DNA from: a virus
Strand: one strand, 5' to 3'
Length of the DNA stretch: 40,754 bases
UHGV virus genome: UHGV-1474357
The notes under the pieces were generated by a model, which was not told the DNA's origin, did no database searches, and was given only the letters and a program-made list of their open reading frames with translations. Shown here piece after piece: positions 5,902 through 40,716 of this stretch. The translations under genes and the position numbers were made by a program. The first letter of the stretch is position 1, and the number at the start of each line of letters is the position of its first letter.

Positions 5902-6486
5902 TTATTGTTTGTTTTTTTCGTTCTGGTTGATGACAAATTCAATGTAACTTTCGATCTTTGCTTTCTCGGTTTCGGGTAACAATGCGTAGCGCGAGCGATC
6001 ATAGTTGATGGTCGCAGGGTCGTGCGGGTGAATCAGTAATTCATAGCCGTGACGCCCGAATGCGGATGCAACATTCTCCAGGGTGGAAATGGAAACGCTG
6101 ACCTCATTGTTTAACAGGCGGCTGATTGTCACCTGGGCTACGCCGGATGCGCGGTGAAGTTTTCCCTGTGTTGAAAGGTCGCGGCTTTCGCTCATCCAGC
6201 GTTCCAGGTTGTGAGCCGCCAGCTGGCCAATGTCGCTTGGGCCGACAGGCTGAAAACCTTCCTGAGAAAGCGAGCGATCGATATCAAGCCAGTTACGGGG
6301 TTTATTGGCGGCAGCTTCAATTTTTCGTGCAACCTGGTCGCCGATAACCTTCTTGCCAAGAGCCCAGCGGTTTACCAGATTTGCCTGAGTTCCAAGTTTT
6401 TCAGCCATCCGCGTCTGAACACCATTGAATTCACGGTCGATCAAGTCGTTGAGATTTTGCCTGCGGACGTCCTGGATACTTTTCAT
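5902..6486 (-). CDS. Prophage repressor (CI-like), two HTH-like segments, no S24 peptidase domain
   Basis: 194 aa; HTH-like segments (QTRMAEKLGTQANLVNRWALGKK and VAQVTISRLLNNEVSVSISTLENVASAFG); divergent from the Cro-like gene; no Ala-Gly/Ser-Lys LexA-like autocleavage module recognisable. Confidence 0.75.
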   Translation of the reverse strand: MKSIQDVRRQNLNDLIDREFNGVQTRMAEKLGTQANLVNRWALGKKVIGDQVARKIEAAANKPRNWLDIDRSLSQEGFQPVGPSDIGQLAAHNLERWMSESRDLSTQGKLHRASGVAQVTISRLLNNEVSVSISTLENVASAFGRHGYELLIHPHDPATINYDRSRYALLPETEKAKIESYIEFVINQNEKNKQ

Positions 6487-6541
6487 TTTCTGGAAAATCG
6501 CCTCATATATGAATCAGTAGATGATTCAATTTAAAGCAATA

Positions 6542-6556
6542 TTACCCAACAGGTAA
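6542..6556. promoter_or_regulatory. TTACC-N5-GGTAA dyad (TTACCCAACAGGTAA), candidate right operator 1
   Basis: Perfect dyad arms in the repressor/cro intergenic region. Confidence 0.5.
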
Positions 6557-6589
6557 ATGCACCCCACAGGTAACTATCCTTGATTTTTG

Positions 6590-15481: not shown

Positions 15482-15555
15482 AACTGGAAGCAATGAGTTA
15501 TGCCTTCCGTGGCTGTACGGGTTTACAGCATGAAGTCATCGCAATGGCGTCCTGC

Positions 15556-15643: not shown

Positions 15644-15720
15644 TGGCGTGGCATGCAGGATTCGAACCTGCGACCAACCGCTTAGAAGGCGGTTGCTCTG
15701 TCCGACTGAGCTAATGCCAC
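15644..15720 (-). tRNA. tRNA-Arg (anticodon UCU), argU-like, CCA encoded
   Basis: Minus-strand sequence GTGGCAT-TA-GCTC-AGTCGGACA-GAGC-A-ACCGC-CTTCTAA-GCGGT-TGGTC-GCAGG-TTCGAAT-CCTGC-ATGCCAC-G-CCA folds as a canonical cloverleaf with all four stems Watson-Crick paired; anticodon loop CU-UCU-AA. Confidence 0.9.
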
Positions 15721-19053: not shown

Positions 19054-20040
19054 ATGGCTGTTAAAGGCTTAACTGCGCTAACGCTGGCTGACTGGGGTAA
19101 GCGCGTCGATCCAAACGGGAAAGTCGATAAGATTATCGAGCTTCTCGGTCAAACTAACCCGATCCTTCAGGATATGCCCTTTGTCGAAGGGAACCTTCCT
19201 ACCGGACACCGAACCACCATTCGTTCTGGTTTACCTTCAGCTACCTGGCGTTTGCTGAACTATGGCGTACAGCCAAGCAAATCAACCACAGTGCAGGTAA
19301 CCGATTCCGTTGGCATGCTGGAAACCTATGCTGAAGTCGATAAGTCACTGGCTGATCTGAACGGCAATACCGCTGAATTCCGCCTGTCTGAAGACCGCGC
19401 ATTTATTGAAGCGATGAATCAGCAGATGGCGCAGACGCTGTTTTATGGTGATTCCAGCGTTAACCCTCAGCAGTTTATGGGACTGTCCTCCCGCTATTCC
19501 AGCCTGTCTGCGGGTAATGCTCAGAACATCATTGATGCTGGTGGCACGGGTACAGATAACACCTCAATCTGGTTAGTGGTGTGGGGCGAAAACACCGTGC
19601 ATGGCATCTTCCCGAAAGGGCAGAAGGCTGGCATCCAGATGGAAGATAAAGGCCAGGTGACACTGGAAGATGCTAATGGCGGCAAGTACGAAGGCTATCG
19701 CACCCATTACAAATGGGATAACGGACTTGCTCTGCGTGACTGGCGTTATGTTGTTCGCATTGCAAACATCGATGTCAGCAATCTTTCAGAACCATCCTCT
19801 GCCGCAAATATTGCCAAGTTGATGGTTAAGGCACTGCATCGCATTCCAAACCGTGGCATGGGCCGCCCGGTGTTCTACATGAACCGCACTGTAGGCCAGG
19901 CTCTTGATCTGCAATCTCTGGAGAAAACATCTCTGGCTATCAGCGTAAAAGAGACAGAAGGCGAGTGGTGGACTTCATTCCGTGGTGTACCAATCCGTGA
20001 AACTGATGCGCTTCTGGAAACAGAAGCCCGCGTGGTGTAA
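19054..20040 (+). CDS. Major capsid protein
   Basis: 328 aa; position after scaffold; followed by a hairpin. Alternative ATG at 19048. Confidence 0.75.
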   Translation: MAVKGLTALTLADWGKRVDPNGKVDKIIELLGQTNPILQDMPFVEGNLPTGHRTTIRSGLPSATWRLLNYGVQPSKSTTVQVTDSVGMLETYAEVDKSLADLNGNTAEFRLSEDRAFIEAMNQQMAQTLFYGDSSVNPQQFMGLSSRYSSLSAGNAQNIIDAGGTGTDNTSIWLVVWGENTVHGIFPKGQKAGIQMEDKGQVTLEDANGGKYEGYRTHYKWDNGLALRDWRYVVRIANIDVSNLSEPSSAANIAKLMVKALHRIPNRGMGRPVFYMNRTVGQALDLQSLEKTSLAISVKETEGEWWTSFRGVPIRETDALLETEARVV

Positions 20041-32907: not shown

Positions 32908-33024
32908 ATCATCCTCCCATACGGGAACAGACGTGACTTACATACGGTGTGATTTTGACTAGTTAACTTTCTGCAGCAAAACCATCACGGTAACTACAAA
33001 CTAAAATGTTACAAATCAACTTTC

Positions 33025-33039
33025 TTACCTTTGGGGTAA
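33025..33039. promoter_or_regulatory. TTACC-N5-GGTAA dyad (TTACCTTTGGGGTAA)
   Basis: Perfect arms; on the minus strand it sits 5 nt upstream of a TTGATT -35-like hexamer ahead of the two-gene cassette. Confidence 0.45.
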
Positions 33040-33065
33040 TAGTACGCTATTCACCTGCAATCTGT

Positions 33066-33090
33066 ACAGAATTATTTAAAGGCACATCCC
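33066..33090 (-). terminator. Hairpin after antirepressor-like gene
   Basis: Minus-strand GGCACAGGGATGTGCC followed by TTTAAATAATT. Confidence 0.4.
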
Positions 33091-33105
33091 TGTGCCGCCG
33101 TTCTG

Positions 33106-33762
33106 TCAGAAGACCCCTGCCTTGTCGTTGATGTATTCCGCGTGGGTCTGGATATCACGCAGGCATTTACTCACACCGACGATGTAGCAGAACATGGTAG
33201 TCAGCTCCGCCGCCGCGCCCGATACGTCGTGCCCGTCGTCCTGTAACTGGTTCAGCAGATTCATCAGCAGTGAGTTCTCCGTCAGGCCGAGAACACCAGA
33301 TGGGGAATGAATCAGGCTGCGGTAGCCGGGCTTCAGTGGGGCGCTGTATTCTTTTTTGTCTTCCAGCTTGATCGCCTCCATAATGGCGGGCATGAAGCCT
33401 GACAAGACCTTCTCCACTTTTGTTTCTTGTTGTCTTAAACGTTTCTCGCATTCAATGAAGTAGCGTCGCACCTGGCGACCTTTTTCGTTACGCTCGACCA
33501 TCGCCAGCTCTTTGGCTGTATCAAGGGTGAGGTGGTACTCTTTGCGGTTGTGGCCGCCTCTACCAGATGTTTGCTTTCCCAAATTGGAAAGCAAAATATA
33601 GTCTTGATTTTCAATGAATTCGTATTCTGATATGCGATTTGTAATCCATGCTGCAAACACCTTTTTAACACCTAAAAAAGCGTGCAGATCGCGGGCATTA
33701 CAAAGTAGGGCTGTTTCGTTAGATATAGTGCCGTTGAATACGGGGATGAGTTGAGCGTTCAT
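33106..33762 (-). CDS. Antirepressor-like protein (Bro-N/AntA-like N-terminal domain, Ant C-terminal domain)
   Basis: 218 aa; N-terminus [27 protein letters not shown] and central [26 protein letters not shown] resemble phage antirepressor families; GGAG SD; C-terminal 70 aa homologous to the small gene at 34913-35170. Confidence 0.7.
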
Positions 33763-33920
33763 GATGGCGTCTCCACTTAGCGAATTACATCACCACCGCT
33801 GAGACCAATCAGATGGTGGTGAACTGAACGGAGTTGGTCTTACCGGCCTAAGTGGTACCGGCGTCCTTTCGGACCCCCATTCAGCCCACCATAATTCTGG
33901 CATGACTGTGCTATACGCAT

Positions 33921-34030
33921 AAAAAAACCACGTCTGGCGTGGTATGCGCCACTTAGTAATCCGGGAGACCAATCCCGGCACTGGATTTTGCCAGTGCCCG
34001 ATTACTATGGCACAAGAGGAGTGCAATGTA
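33921..34030 (-). ncRNA. Candidate structured leader / small RNA with intrinsic terminator upstream of antirepressor gene
   Basis: Minus-strand hairpins GGCACTGG-CAAAAT-CCAGTGCC and CCGGGA-TTGGTC-TCCCGG, then terminator ACCACGCC-AGA-CGTGGT plus TTTTTTT (33921-33943); promoter-like TTGATT / TTATCA hexamers at about 34081-34049 and a dyad operator at 34034-34048; no credible ORF. Confidence 0.3.
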
Positions 34031-34033
34031 AAT

Positions 34034-34048
34034 TTACCGCAAAGGTAA
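34034..34048. promoter_or_regulatory. TTACC-N5-GGTAA dyad (TTACCGCAAAGGTAA)
   Basis: Perfect arms; directly abuts the -10-like hexamer of the putative leftward ant promoter. Confidence 0.45.
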
Positions 34049-34126
34049 TGATAAACGCGAAGAAATATTAAAATCAACCGTATTTGGTTGATTGCGTTTA
34101 ACGCTTGATCACCTGAAAGCAAGATA

Positions 34127-34141
34127 TTACCTTTAAGGTAA
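34127..34141. promoter_or_regulatory. TTACC-N5-GGTAA dyad (TTACCTTTAAGGTAA)
   Basis: Perfect arms; 20 nt upstream of ATG 34162. Confidence 0.45.
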
Positions 34142-34161
34142 TGTTATTGTGAGGAAAAGCA

Positions 34162-34890
34162 ATGGAAGTTTTCTGGATAGTTGTTGGTGTGGTTGCGGTG
34201 ATTATTTACGTTATCAACCAGAACAAGACTAAGATCTCTGATCGTACGGTCGTTAATCATAACAAAACGATAAAGACCGAAGATGGGGAGATAACGATTA
34301 ATCGTACACAGGTGATAGAACACACCTCTACTCAGTTTCAAAAAACTGGAGGTAATGCGCCTAATATTTCCGCACCTCCTGCTTATGATAGTGCGGTAAT
34401 CCAGACATATTATAAACAGCAGGAGTTAGCAAAAGAGAGGCAACTGATTCAGCCAAAGCCGTTTACAGCTGAGCTTCCACCTGGAGTGTCAACGCGTCCG
34501 GCATATCATGGAAGATTCCCTGGTGATGACATATCGTCTCAGTCATCTAAAAAAGCACCTCAGGCAGTATCAGAGCCAGCAAGAATACCTTCTGTATCGC
34601 CGCCAAAAGAAGAATCAGCTAACAGAGTTTCAAGTGGTAGCAAGCAGTGCTTGCGATGCAGAATAAACCTACCATATGAAAAATTCAGGAAATCGTCAAA
34701 AAATCCAGATGGATTGACTAAGTGGTGTGCAAGGTGTCTCGATGGCCCAAAGAATACACGCCATATGAAGTGGTGCCCAATTTGTAATGTCCGCAGAAAA
34801 CGAACAAGCTTTTACCCTAATAATCAAAATGCGGATGGCTTAATGGCATGGTGCAAAACGTGCTGGGACGAGCACAAAGCGAAACGATAG
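34162..34890 (+). CDS. Membrane-anchored protein with repeated zinc-ribbon-like motifs
   Basis: N-terminal TM helix (VFWIVVGVVAVIIYVI); C-terminal repeats of C-x2-C...NPDGL..WC..C (CLRCRINLPYEKFRKSSKNPDGLTKWCARC; CPICNVRRKRTSFYPNNQNADGLMAWCKTC); AT-rich; bidirectional terminator follows. Confidence 0.6.
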   Translation: MEVFWIVVGVVAVIIYVINQNKTKISDRTVVNHNKTIKTEDGEITINRTQVIEHTSTQFQKTGGNAPNISAPPAYDSAVIQTYYKQQELAKERQLIQPKPFTAELPPGVSTRPAYHGRFPGDDISSQSSKKAPQAVSEPARIPSVSPPKEESANRVSSGSKQCLRCRINLPYEKFRKSSKNPDGLTKWCARCLDGPKNTRHMKWCPICNVRRKRTSFYPNNQNADGLMAWCKTCWDEHKAKR

Positions 34891-34914
34891 GCCGCTCTTG
34901 CGGCCTTTAAATTT
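34890..34914. terminator. Bidirectional intrinsic terminator between convergent genes
   Basis: GGCCGC-TCTT-GCGGCC flanked by A/T runs; stem nearly identical to the terminator at 32033-32057. Confidence 0.6.
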
Positions 34915-35170
34915 ACCGGGTTTGTTTTCGTAATTGTTCGGCACAATAGTCGAGATGTGTTTGCAGATCCTGCATAGACATCTGTGAGCTGGTGACGTAG
35001 TTAATCAGTGCAGTCAGTTCGGCAAGTGGGCCATCGACATTAAATCCATCCTTATCGAGATCCCGGAGTAATTTCATCAAGTGCGATCCCTCCACCAGTG
35101 ACCTGACGCCTCCCGGCGTGTGAATCCTTTCGGTAAATCCGTCTTCCAGTGGATAGTGATACTGCTGCAT
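34913..35170 (-). CDS. Small protein (85 aa) homologous to the antirepressor C-terminal domain; candidate SOS-controlled antirepressor
   Basis: About 40% identity by eye to residues about 150-218 of the 33106-33762 product (shared PL, IH.P.GV, LM.LL, DG..V.G, AELT, D.QTH..Y); GGAG SD; LexA box 19 bp upstream of the ATG. Confidence 0.6.
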   Translation of the reverse strand: MQQYHYPLEDGFTERIHTPGGVRSLVEGSHLMKLLRDLDKDGFNVDGPLAELTALINYVTSSQMSMQDLQTHLDYCAEQLRKQTR

Positions 35171-35188
35171 CTTATCTTCTCCATGCAA

Positions 35189-35210
35189 TAACTGTATGTT
35201 TATACAGTAA
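35189..35210. promoter_or_regulatory. LexA (SOS) box TAACTGTATGTTTATACAGTAA
   Basis: Matches CTGT-N8-ACAG with AT-rich spacer and TA flanks (consensus TACTGTATATATATACAGTA); contains TATAAA -10-like hexamer on the minus strand; positioned 19 bp upstream of ATG 35170. Confidence 0.6.
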
Positions 35211-35246
35211 CAAATAATTTGTTTGCTATCCAGCACGTTTTGCAAA

Positions 35247-35261
35247 TTACCCGAAAGGTAA
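35247..35261. promoter_or_regulatory. TTACC-N5-GGTAA dyad (TTACCCGAAAGGTAA)
   Basis: Perfect arms; between the LexA-boxed small gene and the tailspike gene. Confidence 0.45.
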
Positions 35262-35365
35262 TATCTATTGGTATTTACAGTCTTTTTATCCATATATGGT
35301 TTTTCAGGTAATAGAATAACCAGATATGCGGCGCAACGGGTGCTGCGACTATCTGGAGATTTAAC

Positions 35366-38300
35366 ATGACGGTCTCAACCGAAGTTGACCACAACGAATA
35401 CACCGGTAACGGCGTTACGACATCGTTTCCGTATACTTTTCGAATTTTCAGAAAATCAGACCTGGTTGTTCAGGTGTCTGACCTGAACGGGAACGTAACA
35501 GAATTGGTCCTGGATACCGGTTATACGGTAACTGGGGCGGGCACTTATAGTGGCGGTTCTGTGGTTCTTCCGTCTCCGCTTGCTACTGGATGGCGAATTA
35601 CGATAGATCGTGTGCTTGATGTAGTGCAGGACACAGACCTTCGCAATCAGGGAAAATTTTTCCCCGAAGTGCATGAAGATGCCTTTGACTACCTGACGAT
35701 GCTGATCCAGCAATGTTTTGGGTGGTTCAGACGTGCATTGATGAAACCATCTTTGCTTGCAAAATATTACGATGCAAAGCAAAACAAAATTTCTAACCTT
35801 GCAGATCCATCATTTGAGCAGGACGCTGTAAATAATCGCTCAATGCGTAATTATGTCGATGCTGCAATCGCCGGAGTTGTTGGTGGTTTTGGTTGGTTTA
35901 TTCAGTATGGTTCTGGGGCTGTGTACCGAACGTTCCAGGATAAAATGCGTGATGCTATTAGCCCCAAAGATTTTGGAGCTGTTGGTGATGGTATAAATGA
36001 CGATTCCACTGCAATAAGCGCGTGCCTTGAAGCCTCATCTCCAGGTTATAAAATTGACGGATTAGGGCTTACTTTTAAAGTATCAACTCTTCCGGATGTC
36101 AGTCGATTTAAAAATGCTCGTTTTTTATTTGAGAGAATACCGGGCCAGCCTCTTTTTTATGCTTCTGAAGATTTTATCCAGGGAGAGTTATTTAAAATTA
36201 CAGATACACCGTGGTACAACGCCTGGACGCAGGATAAAACGTTTGTATATGACAATGTCATCTATGCGCCTTTTATGGCTGGAGACCGCCATGGTGTAAA
36301 TAACCTCCATGTTGCATGGGTTCGCTCAGGAGATGACGGGAAGACCTGGACAACGCCGGAATGGCTTACAGATTTACATGAAAACTATCCCACAGTTAAC
36401 TATCACTGCATGAGTATGGGGGTTGTCAGAAATCGCCTTTTTGCTGTAATTGAGACGCGGACCGTGAGAGGAAATAAACTGCAGGTTGCAGAGTTGTGGG
36501 ATCGCCCAATGAGTCGCAGCCTTCGCGTTTATGGTGGTATAACGAAAGCAGCAAATCAGCAAGTCGCTTATATTCGCATTACTGATCACGGATTATTTGC
36601 TGGTGATTTTGTCAACTTCTCAAACTCTGGTGTTACAGGTGTTACCGGGAATATGACGGTGACTACTGTTATTGATAAAAATACCTTTACAGTTACGACG
36701 CAAAATACCCAGGATGTGGATCAGAATAACGAGGGTAGATACTGGAGTTTTGGCACATCATTTCACTCGTCACCATGGAGAAAAACCAGTCTTGGAACTA
36801 TTCCTTCTTTTGTTGACGGAAGCACTCCTGTTACTGAGATTCACAGTTTTGCGACGATTAGCGATAACAGTTTTGCTGTTGGCTACCATAATGGTGATAT
36901 TGGTCCACGCGAGCTTGGGATACTCTATTTCTCTGATGCTTTCGGTTCTCCTGGTAGCTTTGTTCGCAGACGCATACCTGTAGAATATGAGGCGAATGCA
37001 TCTGAGCCATGTGTAAAATATTATGATGGCATTCTGTATCTGACGACCAGGGGGACATTAAGTACTCAACCCGGTAGTTCATTGCACAGAAGCTCTGATT
37101 TAGGTACATCATGGAATTCTCTTCGCTTCCCAAATAATGTTCATCACTCAAACCTTCCTTTTGCCAAAGTTGGCGATGAGCTGATTATTTTTGGCAGTGA
37201 GCGCGCATTTGGTGAGTGGGAAGGAGGAGAACCTGATAACCGTTATGCAGGAAATTATCCAAGAACATTTATGACCAGAGTTAACGTCAATGAGTGGAGT
37301 CTGGATAATGTAGAGTGGGTTAATGTTACTGATCAGATTTATCAGGGCGGAATAGTTAACTCTGCGGTTGGTGTTGGTTCAGTTTGTATCAAAGACAACT
37401 GGCTGTACTACATTTTCGGTGGGGAAGACTTTCTAAACCCATGGAGCATAGGGGATAACAACAGAAAATATCCTTATGTTCACGATGGTCACCCGGCTGA
37501 TTTGTATTGTTTCAGGGTGAAAATTAAACAGGAAGAATTTGTTTCAAGGGATTTTGTCTACGGAGCCACTCCTAACAGAACGCTTCCTACTTTTATGTCG
37601 ACGTCAGGCGTGAGGACGGTTCCTGTACCCGTTGATTTCACAGATGATGTTGCCGTCCAGTCACTGACTGTCCATGCAGGTACATCAGGACAAGTTCGCG
37701 CGGAAGTCAAACTTGAGGGTAATTACGCCATTATTGCGAAGAAAGTACCGTCTGATGATGTTACCGCTCAGAGATTAATCGTTAGCGGCGGTGAAACAAC
37801 GTCTTCAGCAGATGGTGCAATGATAACGTTGCATGGTTCCGTAAGCAGTACTCCACGTCGCGCGGTATATAACGCACTCGAACATCTTTTTGAGAACGGA
37901 GATGTTAAACCTTATCTTGATAATGTAAATGCTCTTGGTGGTCCGGGAAACAGGTTCTCGACAGTTTATCTTGGCTCCAATCCTGTGGTTACCAGTGACG
38001 GAACATTAAAGACAGAGCCGGTCTCTCCTGACGAAGCATTGCTGGATGCCTGGGGTGACGTCAGGTATATCGCTTATAAATGGCTGAACGCTGTCGCTAT
38101 AAAGGGGGAAGAAGGGGCGAGGATACATCATGGTGTAATCGCGCAGCAACTTCGTGATGTTCTTATTTCTCACGGACTCATGGAAGAAGAAAGCACAACA
38201 TGCCGCTATGCCTTTCTTTGCTATGACGATTATCCCGCAGTATATGATGACGTCATTACTGGCCAAAGGGAAATGCCGCTGACTGATAATGAAGGGAGCA

Positions 38301-38485
38301 TCATTGTTGATGAGGATGATAATCCAGTGATGGTAATGGAAGACATCATTGAGCGCGTTGAAATAACGCCAGCAGGATCTAGATGGGGGGTCAGACCTGA
38401 TCTCTTATTCTATATCGAGGCGGCATGGCAGCGCAGAGAAATGGATAAGATAAAAGAGCGGATTCAGTCTCTGGAAGAACGTTAA
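35366..38485 (+). CDS. Tailspike/tail fibre: T7 gp17-like N-terminal adaptor, sialidase-fold domain with Asp-boxes, C-terminal intramolecular chaperone domain; endosialidase-like
   Basis: 1039 aa; N-terminal conserved particle-binding pattern (FPYTF...DLRNQGKFFPEVHEDAFDYL); Asp-box motifs SGDDGKTW and SSDLGTSW; C-terminal segment (GVIAQQLRDVLISHGLMEEESTTCRYAFLCYDDY...) typical of auto-cleaving chaperone domains; GGAG SD. Confidence 0.8.
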   Translation: MTVSTEVDHNEYTGNGVTTSFPYTFRIFRKSDLVVQVSDLNGNVTELVLDTGYTVTGAGTYSGGSVVLPSPLATGWRITIDRVLDVVQDTDLRNQGKFFPEVHEDAFDYLTMLIQQCFGWFRRALMKPSLLAKYYDAKQNKISNLADPSFEQDAVNNRSMRNYVDAAIAGVVGGFGWFIQYGSGAVYRTFQDKMRDAISPKDFGAVGDGINDDSTAISACLEASSPGYKIDGLGLTFKVSTLPDVSRFKNARFLFERIPGQPLFYASEDFIQGELFKITDTPWYNAWTQDKTFVYDNVIYAPFMAGDRHGVNNLHVAWVRSGDDGKTWTTPEWLTDLHENYPTVNYHCMSMGVVRNRLFAVIETRTVRGNKLQVAELWDRPMSRSLRVYGGITKAANQQVAYIRITDHGLFAGDFVNFSNSGVTGVTGNMTVTTVIDKNTFTVTTQNTQDVDQNNEGRYWSFGTSFHSSPWRKTSLGTIPSFVDGSTPVTEIHSFATISDNSFAVGYHNGDIGPRELGILYFSDAFGSPGSFVRRRIPVEYEANASEPCVKYYDGILYLTTRGTLSTQPGSSLHRSSDLGTSWNSLRFPNNVHHSNLPFAKVGDELIIFGSERAFGEWEGGEPDNRYAGNYPRTFMTRVNVNEWSLDNVEWVNVTDQIYQGGIVNSAVGVGSVCIKDNWLYYIFGGEDFLNPWSIGDNNRKYPYVHDGHPADLYCFRVKIKQEEFVSRDFVYGATPNRTLPTFMSTSGVRTVPVPVDFTDDVAVQSLTVHAGTSGQVRAEVKLEGNYAIIAKKVPSDDVTAQRLIVSGGETTSSADGAMITLHGSVSSTPRRAVYNALEHLFENGDVKPYLDNVNALGGPGNRFSTVYLGSNPVVTSDGTLKTEPVSPDEALLDAWGDVRYIAYKWLNAVAIKGEEGARIHHGVIAQQLRDVLISHGLMEEESTTCRYAFLCYDDYPAVYDDVITGQREMPLTDNEGSIIVDEDDNPVMVMEDIIERVEITPAGSRWGVRPDLLFYIEAAWQRREMDKIKERIQSLEER

Positions 38486-40699: not shown

Positions 40700-40716
40700 A
40701 TTGAGTGGGAATGATT
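40700..40716. repeat. attR core, 17-bp direct repeat ATTGAGTGGGAATGATT
   Basis: Exact match to 66-82; followed by a sequence resembling the native host terminator. Confidence 0.8.

Follow-up and report, generated by a model that had tools for sequence, protein, structure and literature searches.

A probable SOS-responsive Rep-Ant switch of the SPC32H type in an E. coli epsilon15/phiV10-type prophage

Results

Genes and Sequence Features at the ant Locus

The window, that is, the whole stretch of DNA analyzed here (40,754 nt; 40.7 kb), contains a short minus-strand gene, ant, that diverges from a tailspike gene, with two palindromes in the intergenic region between them. The prophage repressor gene, rep, and an operator-like palindrome beside it lie in a separate immunity region. 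The features on which the following analyses draw are:

34913-35170, minus strand: ant, encoding an 85-aa small antirepressor of the SPC32H Ant family (tblastn, match to PDB 5D50 chain E, phrog_450)
35179-35182, minus strand: Shine-Dalgarno sequence GGAG, 8 nt before the ant ATG, read from the sequence
35190-35209, no strand assigned: putative LexA (SOS) box AACTGTATGTTTATACAGTA, with the core CTGT-N8-ACAG at 35192-35207
35204-35232, minus strand: candidate ant promoter proposed from conservation, with -35 TGGATA at 35232-35227, a 17-bp spacer, and -10 TACTGT at 35209-35204
35246-35262, no strand assigned: perfect palindrome ATTACCCGAAAGGTAAT (ATTACC-N5-GGTAAT), located upstream of the proposed -35 in the ant-tailspike interval and presumed to be a Rep operator
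35366-38485, plus strand: tailspike gene, K1 endosialidase with an S74 chaperone domain, divergent from ant
5902-6486, minus strand: rep, encoding a 194-aa prophage repressor of the SPC32H Rep family (match to 5D50 chain A, Pfam HTH)
6541-6557, no strand assigned: operator-like palindrome ATTACCCAACAGGTAAA in the rep/cro-like intergenic region

A scan of the window recovered the 17-bp att core ATTGAGTGGGAATGATT as direct repeats at 66-82 and 40700-40716, with about 65 and 38 bp of host DNA beyond them. The same sequence is the attP core published for phiV10, epsilon15, and vB_EcoP_ZX5 (PMC9782041). The presence of the att core at both ends identifies the window, at the sequence level, as one complete integrated prophage of the epsilon15/phiV10 type (Uetakevirus), belonging to the guaA-site type. 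DNA around the ant locus was 89 to 98% identical to that of the E. coli uetakeviruses TL-2011b, phiv142-3, ZX5, and phiV10.

The ant ORF starts at the minus-strand ATG at 35170-35168 and ends at 34913, and the Shine-Dalgarno block TTGCATGGAGAAGA was kept in six of nine relatives. A longer, 126-aa ORF starting from 35293 was rejected as ant because the homologs of ant, including the crystallized protein, are 85 to 86 aa long and because the LexA box and the operator would then fall inside the coding sequence. In tblastn searches, the 85-aa protein matched 35 phage records, all of them uetakevirus-type. It was 97.6 to 100% identical to the products of genes at the same locus in phiV10 (gp24), ZX5 (QZE12053), and TL-2011b, each annotated only as "hypothetical protein", and 88% identical to the product of the gene that Salmonella phages SPC32H and SPC32N have annotated as "ant: anti-repressor protein" (SPC32H KC911856; tblastn). 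Among solved structures, the sole match was chain E of PDB 5D50, "Anti-repressor protein" (E = 4.1e-47, residues 2 to 84), and the protein also matched phrog_450 (9e-48). Pfam assigned the 85-aa protein to no family, with no match to PF08346, PF03374, or PF02498 (AntA/KilAC/Bro-N); a DUF724 hit (17.6 bits vs. a cutoff of 38.4) was set aside as sub-threshold noise. A protein-database search added further enterobacterial homologs of 85 to 86 aa, labeled either "hypothetical" or "anti-repressor", and no new architecture. Of 5426 complete E. coli genomes, 532 (~10%) carried the ant locus, which RefSeq annotates there as hypothetical.

The Repressor Lacks a Recognizable Autocleavage Module

Rep matched chain A of PDB 5D50, "Repressor" (E = 4e-42, residues 1 to 190), as well as chain A of 5D4Z, which comprises the C-terminal domain alone (E = 4e-20). 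Since Ant matches 5D50 chain E and Rep matches 5D50 chain A, both partners of the crystallized SPC32H complex are present in this prophage. A preliminary description of the locus, made from the sequence alone, had read the 5902-6486 product as a repressor with HTH-like segments and no S24 peptidase, and the Pfam domains agreed with this reading: HTH_3, HTH_26, HTH_31, and a YdaS-like HTH were found, and no Peptidase_S24 match appeared even at E ≤ 0.1. The SPC32H Rep itself is, according to what Kim & Ryu reportedly found in 2013, not cleaved upon SOS induction. Phage records bearing Ant and those bearing Rep were essentially one set.

Rep was 98.5 to 100% identical to the repressors of E. coli uetakeviruses, reaching 100% with phiV10 and ZX5. 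Its identity to SPC32H Rep was 41.8%, or 43% by count over the HMMER alignment, where the N-terminal domain reached 53% and the C-terminal domain 39%. Relative to SPC32H, then, conservation is much higher for Ant (88%) than for the protein it presumably targets (53% and 39% for the N- and C-terminal domains of Rep). This gap could stem from the linkage of ant to a conserved structural module, or from cross-reactivity between heteroimmune phages as in Gifsy. Given that Rep is ~43% and Ant 88% identical to their SPC32H counterparts, contact between Ant and Rep in the present phage is assumed here by analogy.

A Putative LexA Box Upstream of ant

The preliminary description had placed a near-consensus SOS box at 35189-35210, 19 bp upstream of the ATG of the 85-aa gene, and both the site and its spacing were confirmed. 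The plus strand reads TAACTGTATGTTTATACAGTAA at 35189-35210. Of all sites in the window, the box at 35190-35209 alone differed from the palindromic consensus TACTGTATATATATACAGTA at three positions or fewer, and a site this close never arose in 100 shuffles. Its distance of 19 bp from the ant ATG compares with 156 bp from the tailspike ATG. Scoring by position weight matrix, a check that the same description had proposed, likewise set the site apart: with a symmetrized, approximate LexA matrix derived from 21 E. coli SOS boxes, 35190-35209 scored 26.1 bits, level with the strongest training sites, vs. 13.3 bits for the runner-up in the window and a maximum of 20.1 bits across 200 shuffled windows. 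For the core motif CTGT-N8-ACAG, the 40.7-kb window had three copies, compared with an expectation of 0.56. The copies at 15513 and 20055 were rejected as LexA sites, scoring no more than 10.5 bits and having GC-rich spacers.

When upstream regions were aligned, the box fell exactly onto TTACTGTATGTTTATACAGTG of SPC32H. In nine phages from E. coli, Salmonella, Enterobacter, and Klebsiella, the four central bases varied between the conserved half-sites TACTGTAT and ATACAGT. The six from E. coli, Salmonella, and Enterobacter had both half-sites intact, and the three Klebsiella phages had ATGT in the left half. Conserved half-sites around a variable center are the pattern predicted for a LexA operator, and the alignment displays this pattern. 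In the box region, SPC32N differed from SPC32H by a single base change, ACAG to AAAG, in the right half-site of the homologous box. The two phages are said, in the 2013 work of Kim & Ryu, to differ by two nucleotides, and one of the SPC32N changes reportedly falls within the consensus for LexA binding that overlaps the ant promoter, yielding constitutive Ant and a lytic phage.

The ant promoter assignment is uncertain, since a search of 34850-35400 for the sigma-70 consensus revealed none. Conservation points to the candidate at 35204-35232, for which CTGGA(T/A)A with the 17-bp spacing was kept in all nine aligned relatives. The -10-like TATAAA to which the preliminary description had drawn attention is indeed present inside the box (35204-35199, minus strand) and could serve as the -10 instead, although SPC32H and phiV10 do not share it. 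Either candidate -10, both being weak hexamers, would sit inside the LexA box, an overlap that we infer from the sequence.

Presumed Rep Operators Across the Prophage

Besides the LexA box, the ant-tailspike intergenic region carries the palindrome at 35246, which belongs to a family dispersed over the prophage. With up to two mismatches allowed, ATTACC-N5-GGTAAT was found at 16 sites in the window vs. 1.2 expected, and positions of the 17-mer palindrome include 5767, 5829, 6541, 6926, 8865, 8927, 12835, 12853, 16042, 33024, 34033, 34126, and 35246. Ten of the 16 fell within the 10% of the window that is free of any ORF of at least 90 aa, and several others were in spurious ORFs. The palindrome at 35246 was kept in all nine relatives. 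In the epsilon15 GenBank record, homologous sites are annotated as "repressor" protein_bind features, including one between gp19 (the ant homolog) and the tailspike gene. The half-sites were identical in epsilon15/SPC32H-type and phiV10-type phages, even though their Reps are only ~42% identical. ATTACC-N5-GGTAAT is most likely the Rep operator, and the presumed operator at 35246 would then most likely place the ant promoter, the tailspike promoter, or both under Rep as well, an arrangement already implied by the epsilon15 annotation.

Proposed Mechanism of Prophage Induction

Taken together, the sequence data make it very likely that this locus serves an E. coli epsilon15/phiV10-type prophage as the SOS-sensing arm of its lysis-lysogeny switch and is orthologous to the Rep-Ant system of SPC32H. 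Direct support comes from the homology of both proteins to the crystallized pair, the quality and conservation of the box, the lack of an S24 domain in Rep, and the conserved synteny. By extension from the SPC32H work, in whose primary papers ant is reportedly repressed by LexA, LexA would bind the box in this phage, ant would be SOS-induced, Ant would bind Rep, and the promoter hexamers would lie as proposed.

In the lysogen, host LexA would occupy 35190-35209, overlapping the ant -10 region, and keep ant off, and Rep, with two HTH-type domains and no autocleavage module, would shut the lytic promoters through the ATTACC-N5-GGTAAT operators. Upon DNA damage, activated RecA would promote self-cleavage of LexA, and ant would be transcribed. 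The 85-aa Ant is predicted to bind Rep and take it off the DNA; once Rep has left its operators, lytic genes would be switched on and the prophage induced. The chain put forward in the preliminary description, running from LexA through a small antirepressor to a noncleavable repressor, is thus supported by the homology to SPC32H Ant and Rep (5D50) and by the aligned box. For the last step, the mechanism established in SPC32H has Rep binding DNA as a tetramer and the Ant tetramer binding two Rep dimers and breaking the Rep tetramer (summarized in PMC9638917); in a preprint, Ant is likewise cited as an antirepressor (bioRxiv 10.1101/2025.11.27.690993).

This is an already known switch, namely an ortholog of the SPC32H system with near-identical copies in published E. 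coli phages, and it entails no new mechanism. The SPC32H system is said to have been characterized genetically in 2013 by Kim & Ryu and structurally in 2016 by Kim et al. The main value of the present assignment lies in annotation, given that about one complete E. coli genome in ten, as well as phiV10, ZX5, and TL-2011b, lists the gene product as a "hypothetical protein". A switch of the SPC32H type predicts that these prophages would be SOS-inducible through LexA and Ant, not through repressor cleavage.

Comparison with Known Antirepressor Systems

SPC32H is the closest characterized counterpart. Its Ant is orthologous (88%), its Rep is orthologous over the full length, and it shares with the present phage the genus Uetakevirus and the att site. 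SPC32H ant (19676-19936) diverges from the tailspike gene, tsp, and has its LexA box in the same place before ant, as here. The present phage differs in its diverged Rep (~43%), in the four central nucleotides of the box, in its K1 endosialidase tailspike, and in the cassettes that it additionally carries downstream of ant, with a 242-aa gene and, accompanied by isrK and C4 RNAs, a large antirepressor gene. The gene ant also diverges from the tailspike gene in epsilon15, phiV10, Tyrion, BUCT554, and Klebsiella relatives. Hence, the location about 29 kb from the immunity region and next to the tailspike, which the preliminary description had singled out, is correct as to position but standard for the genus and not peculiar to this phage. 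Neither SPC32H nor LexA is mentioned in the ZX5 paper (PMC9782041).

The preliminary description had further likened the locus to Gifsy prophages, phage 186 (Tum), and N15 (AntC). The regulatory logic is indeed the same, but these systems are analogs and not homologs. In Gifsy-1 and Gifsy-3, GfoA and GfhA are small LexA-controlled antirepressors encoded outside the immunity region that act on a noncleavable repressor (Lemire et al. 2011, PMC3121763). They share this logic with Ant; the Gifsy phages, unlike the present one, are lambdoid siphoviruses with a different repressor family (GfoR/GtgR), and tblastn of the phage collection detected no sequence similarity between them and the small Ant. 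186 Tum and N15 AntC are LexA-repressed antirepressors that act on a repressor, again with the same logic and again not homologous. The 186 record annotates a LexA site at p95 and tum, and Tum is 146 aa long; its homology to Ant was rejected as not significant (BLASTP, 16.5 bits, E = 0.06). At E ≤ 1e-3, tblastn gave no Ant match outside uetakevirus-type phages in a collection that holds both 186 and N15. P22 immI (Ant beside tailspike gene 9) and P1 immI (c4-icd-ant) are also reminiscent of this region, in that the secondary immunity region adjoins the tailspike (P22) and C4 RNA signatures are present. The likeness to P22 and P1 (C4 antisense RNA and a1b1-target signatures) concerns the neighboring large gene, not the 85-aa ant. 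In P22 and P1, Ant is a large protein regulated by Mnt/Arc/sar or by C4 RNA rather than by LexA.

A Second, Larger Antirepressor Gene and Its RNA Cassette

Downstream of ant lies a cassette with a second antirepressor-type gene, comprising the following features:

33106-33762, minus strand: large antirepressor, 218 aa, with an AntA N-terminal domain (Pfam) and an Ant-like C-terminal domain
33812-33896, minus strand: C4 antisense RNA (Rfam, 61 bits, above the gathering score)
33921-33997, minus strand: isrK Hfq-binding RNA (Rfam, 68 bits, above the gathering score)
33958-34010, minus strand: c4-a1b1 target (sub-threshold)
34162-34890, plus strand: 242-aa gene, convergent with ant and located between the two antirepressor genes

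The C-terminal ~80 residues of the 218-aa protein were 42% identical to the small Ant, with a phrog_450 match at residues 135 to 216, and within the phage collection this Ant-like domain occurred in uetakevirus-type phages only (32 records). The N-terminal domain has been swapped, being AntA here and Bro-N in ZX5 and phiV10, with the C-terminal domain still 96 to 98% identical. The C4 and isrK RNAs are immediately upstream of the large gene, and operator palindromes at 34033 and 34126 flank this gene; the cassette is of the P1 immI/Gifsy-1 isrK-anrP type (PMC4825925). Core-motif and matrix scans of the window found no LexA box at the large antirepressor gene; it therefore cannot alone couple induction to SOS. 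These features support, without proving, the idea that the 33106-33762 product is another antirepressor directed at Rep and responding to a different input.

On this basis it is conceivable, if rather doubtful, that uetakeviruses of E. coli, Enterobacter, and Klebsiella carry two paralogous antirepressors that both target Rep. SOS-triggered Ant would then derepress the second one in a feed-forward manner, and the RNA layer would provide an SOS-independent route. The much stronger conservation of Ant than of Rep (88% vs. 39 to 53%) could also point to cross-induction between heteroimmune uetakevirus prophages, as known for the Gifsy phages. If this were true, the LexA-controlled 85-aa Ant and the RNA-controlled large protein would represent different inputs to Rep.

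As for the 242-aa gene, its product has a hydrophobic N terminus, repeated CxxC zinc-ribbon motifs, a phrog_6762 assignment, and weak Stc1/endonuclease VII/Lar-like matches. An operator palindrome, the one at 34126, precedes the gene. Of the phage records returned for the 33000-35400 query, only TL-2011b (two accessions) covered at least 80% of it in one place.

Alternative Explanations

The larger 33106-33762 protein, under C4/IsrK control, might be the effective antirepressor in E. coli phages, with the small Ant redundant or poorly matched to the diverged Rep. Overexpression of its homolog in ZX5, ORF4, lowered lysogen counts ~1000-fold, and this large Bro-N protein was the only antirepressor examined in that study (PMC9782041). 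The Ant paralog at the C terminus of the large protein fits such a role, as does the identity of only 39% between the Rep C-terminal domain and that of SPC32H. However, small ant and its LexA box have been kept in all E. coli uetakeviruses at 97 to 100% protein identity, including PAS61, which is devoid of the large antirepressor, and the frequency of the ant locus among complete E. coli genomes (532 of 5426) argues for selection on it. With the large gene lacking a LexA box in addition, we regard this explanation as unlikely.

Still less probable are two explanations that do away with either the LexA site or the antirepressor as the trigger. That the palindrome arose by chance or serves a regulator other than LexA, for instance one of the tailspike gene, and that the 85-aa ORF has some other function, would accord with the failure of the consensus scan to reveal a promoter near ant and with the location of the box in an intergenic region shared with the tailspike gene. 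Against this stand the matrix score, which is on a par with the best SOS boxes and was not reached in any of the 200 shuffles, the proximity of the box to the ant ATG (19 bp) rather than to that of the tailspike gene (156 bp), the conservation of the LexA half-sites across genera, and the 88% identity of the 85-aa protein to a crystallized antirepressor, so that we give this reading hardly any credence. Inactivation of Rep by RecA-stimulated cleavage through an unrecognized module, as in lambda CI, with Ant merely accessory, is similarly improbable: nothing was found in its favor, no S24 match was obtained in Rep at E ≤ 0.1, and Rep aligns over its whole length with SPC32H Rep, reportedly uncleaved in the 2013 work of Kim & Ryu. 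Control of Rep by a LexA-repressed Ant, as in SPC32H, is the reading we retain.

Tailspike and Other Prophage Cargo

The tailspike encoded at 35366-38485 combines a K1-capsule endosialidase and an S74 intramolecular chaperone domain with an epsilon15-type N-terminal adaptor, and the closest chromosomal copies were found in K1-type ExPEC/APEC strains, e.g., O2:K1:H7. Some prophages with this switch, like the present one, carry a K1 endosialidase tailspike and reside in ExPEC/APEC strains. The prophage also contains a tRNA gene on the minus strand at 15647-15720 (Rfam, 73 bits).
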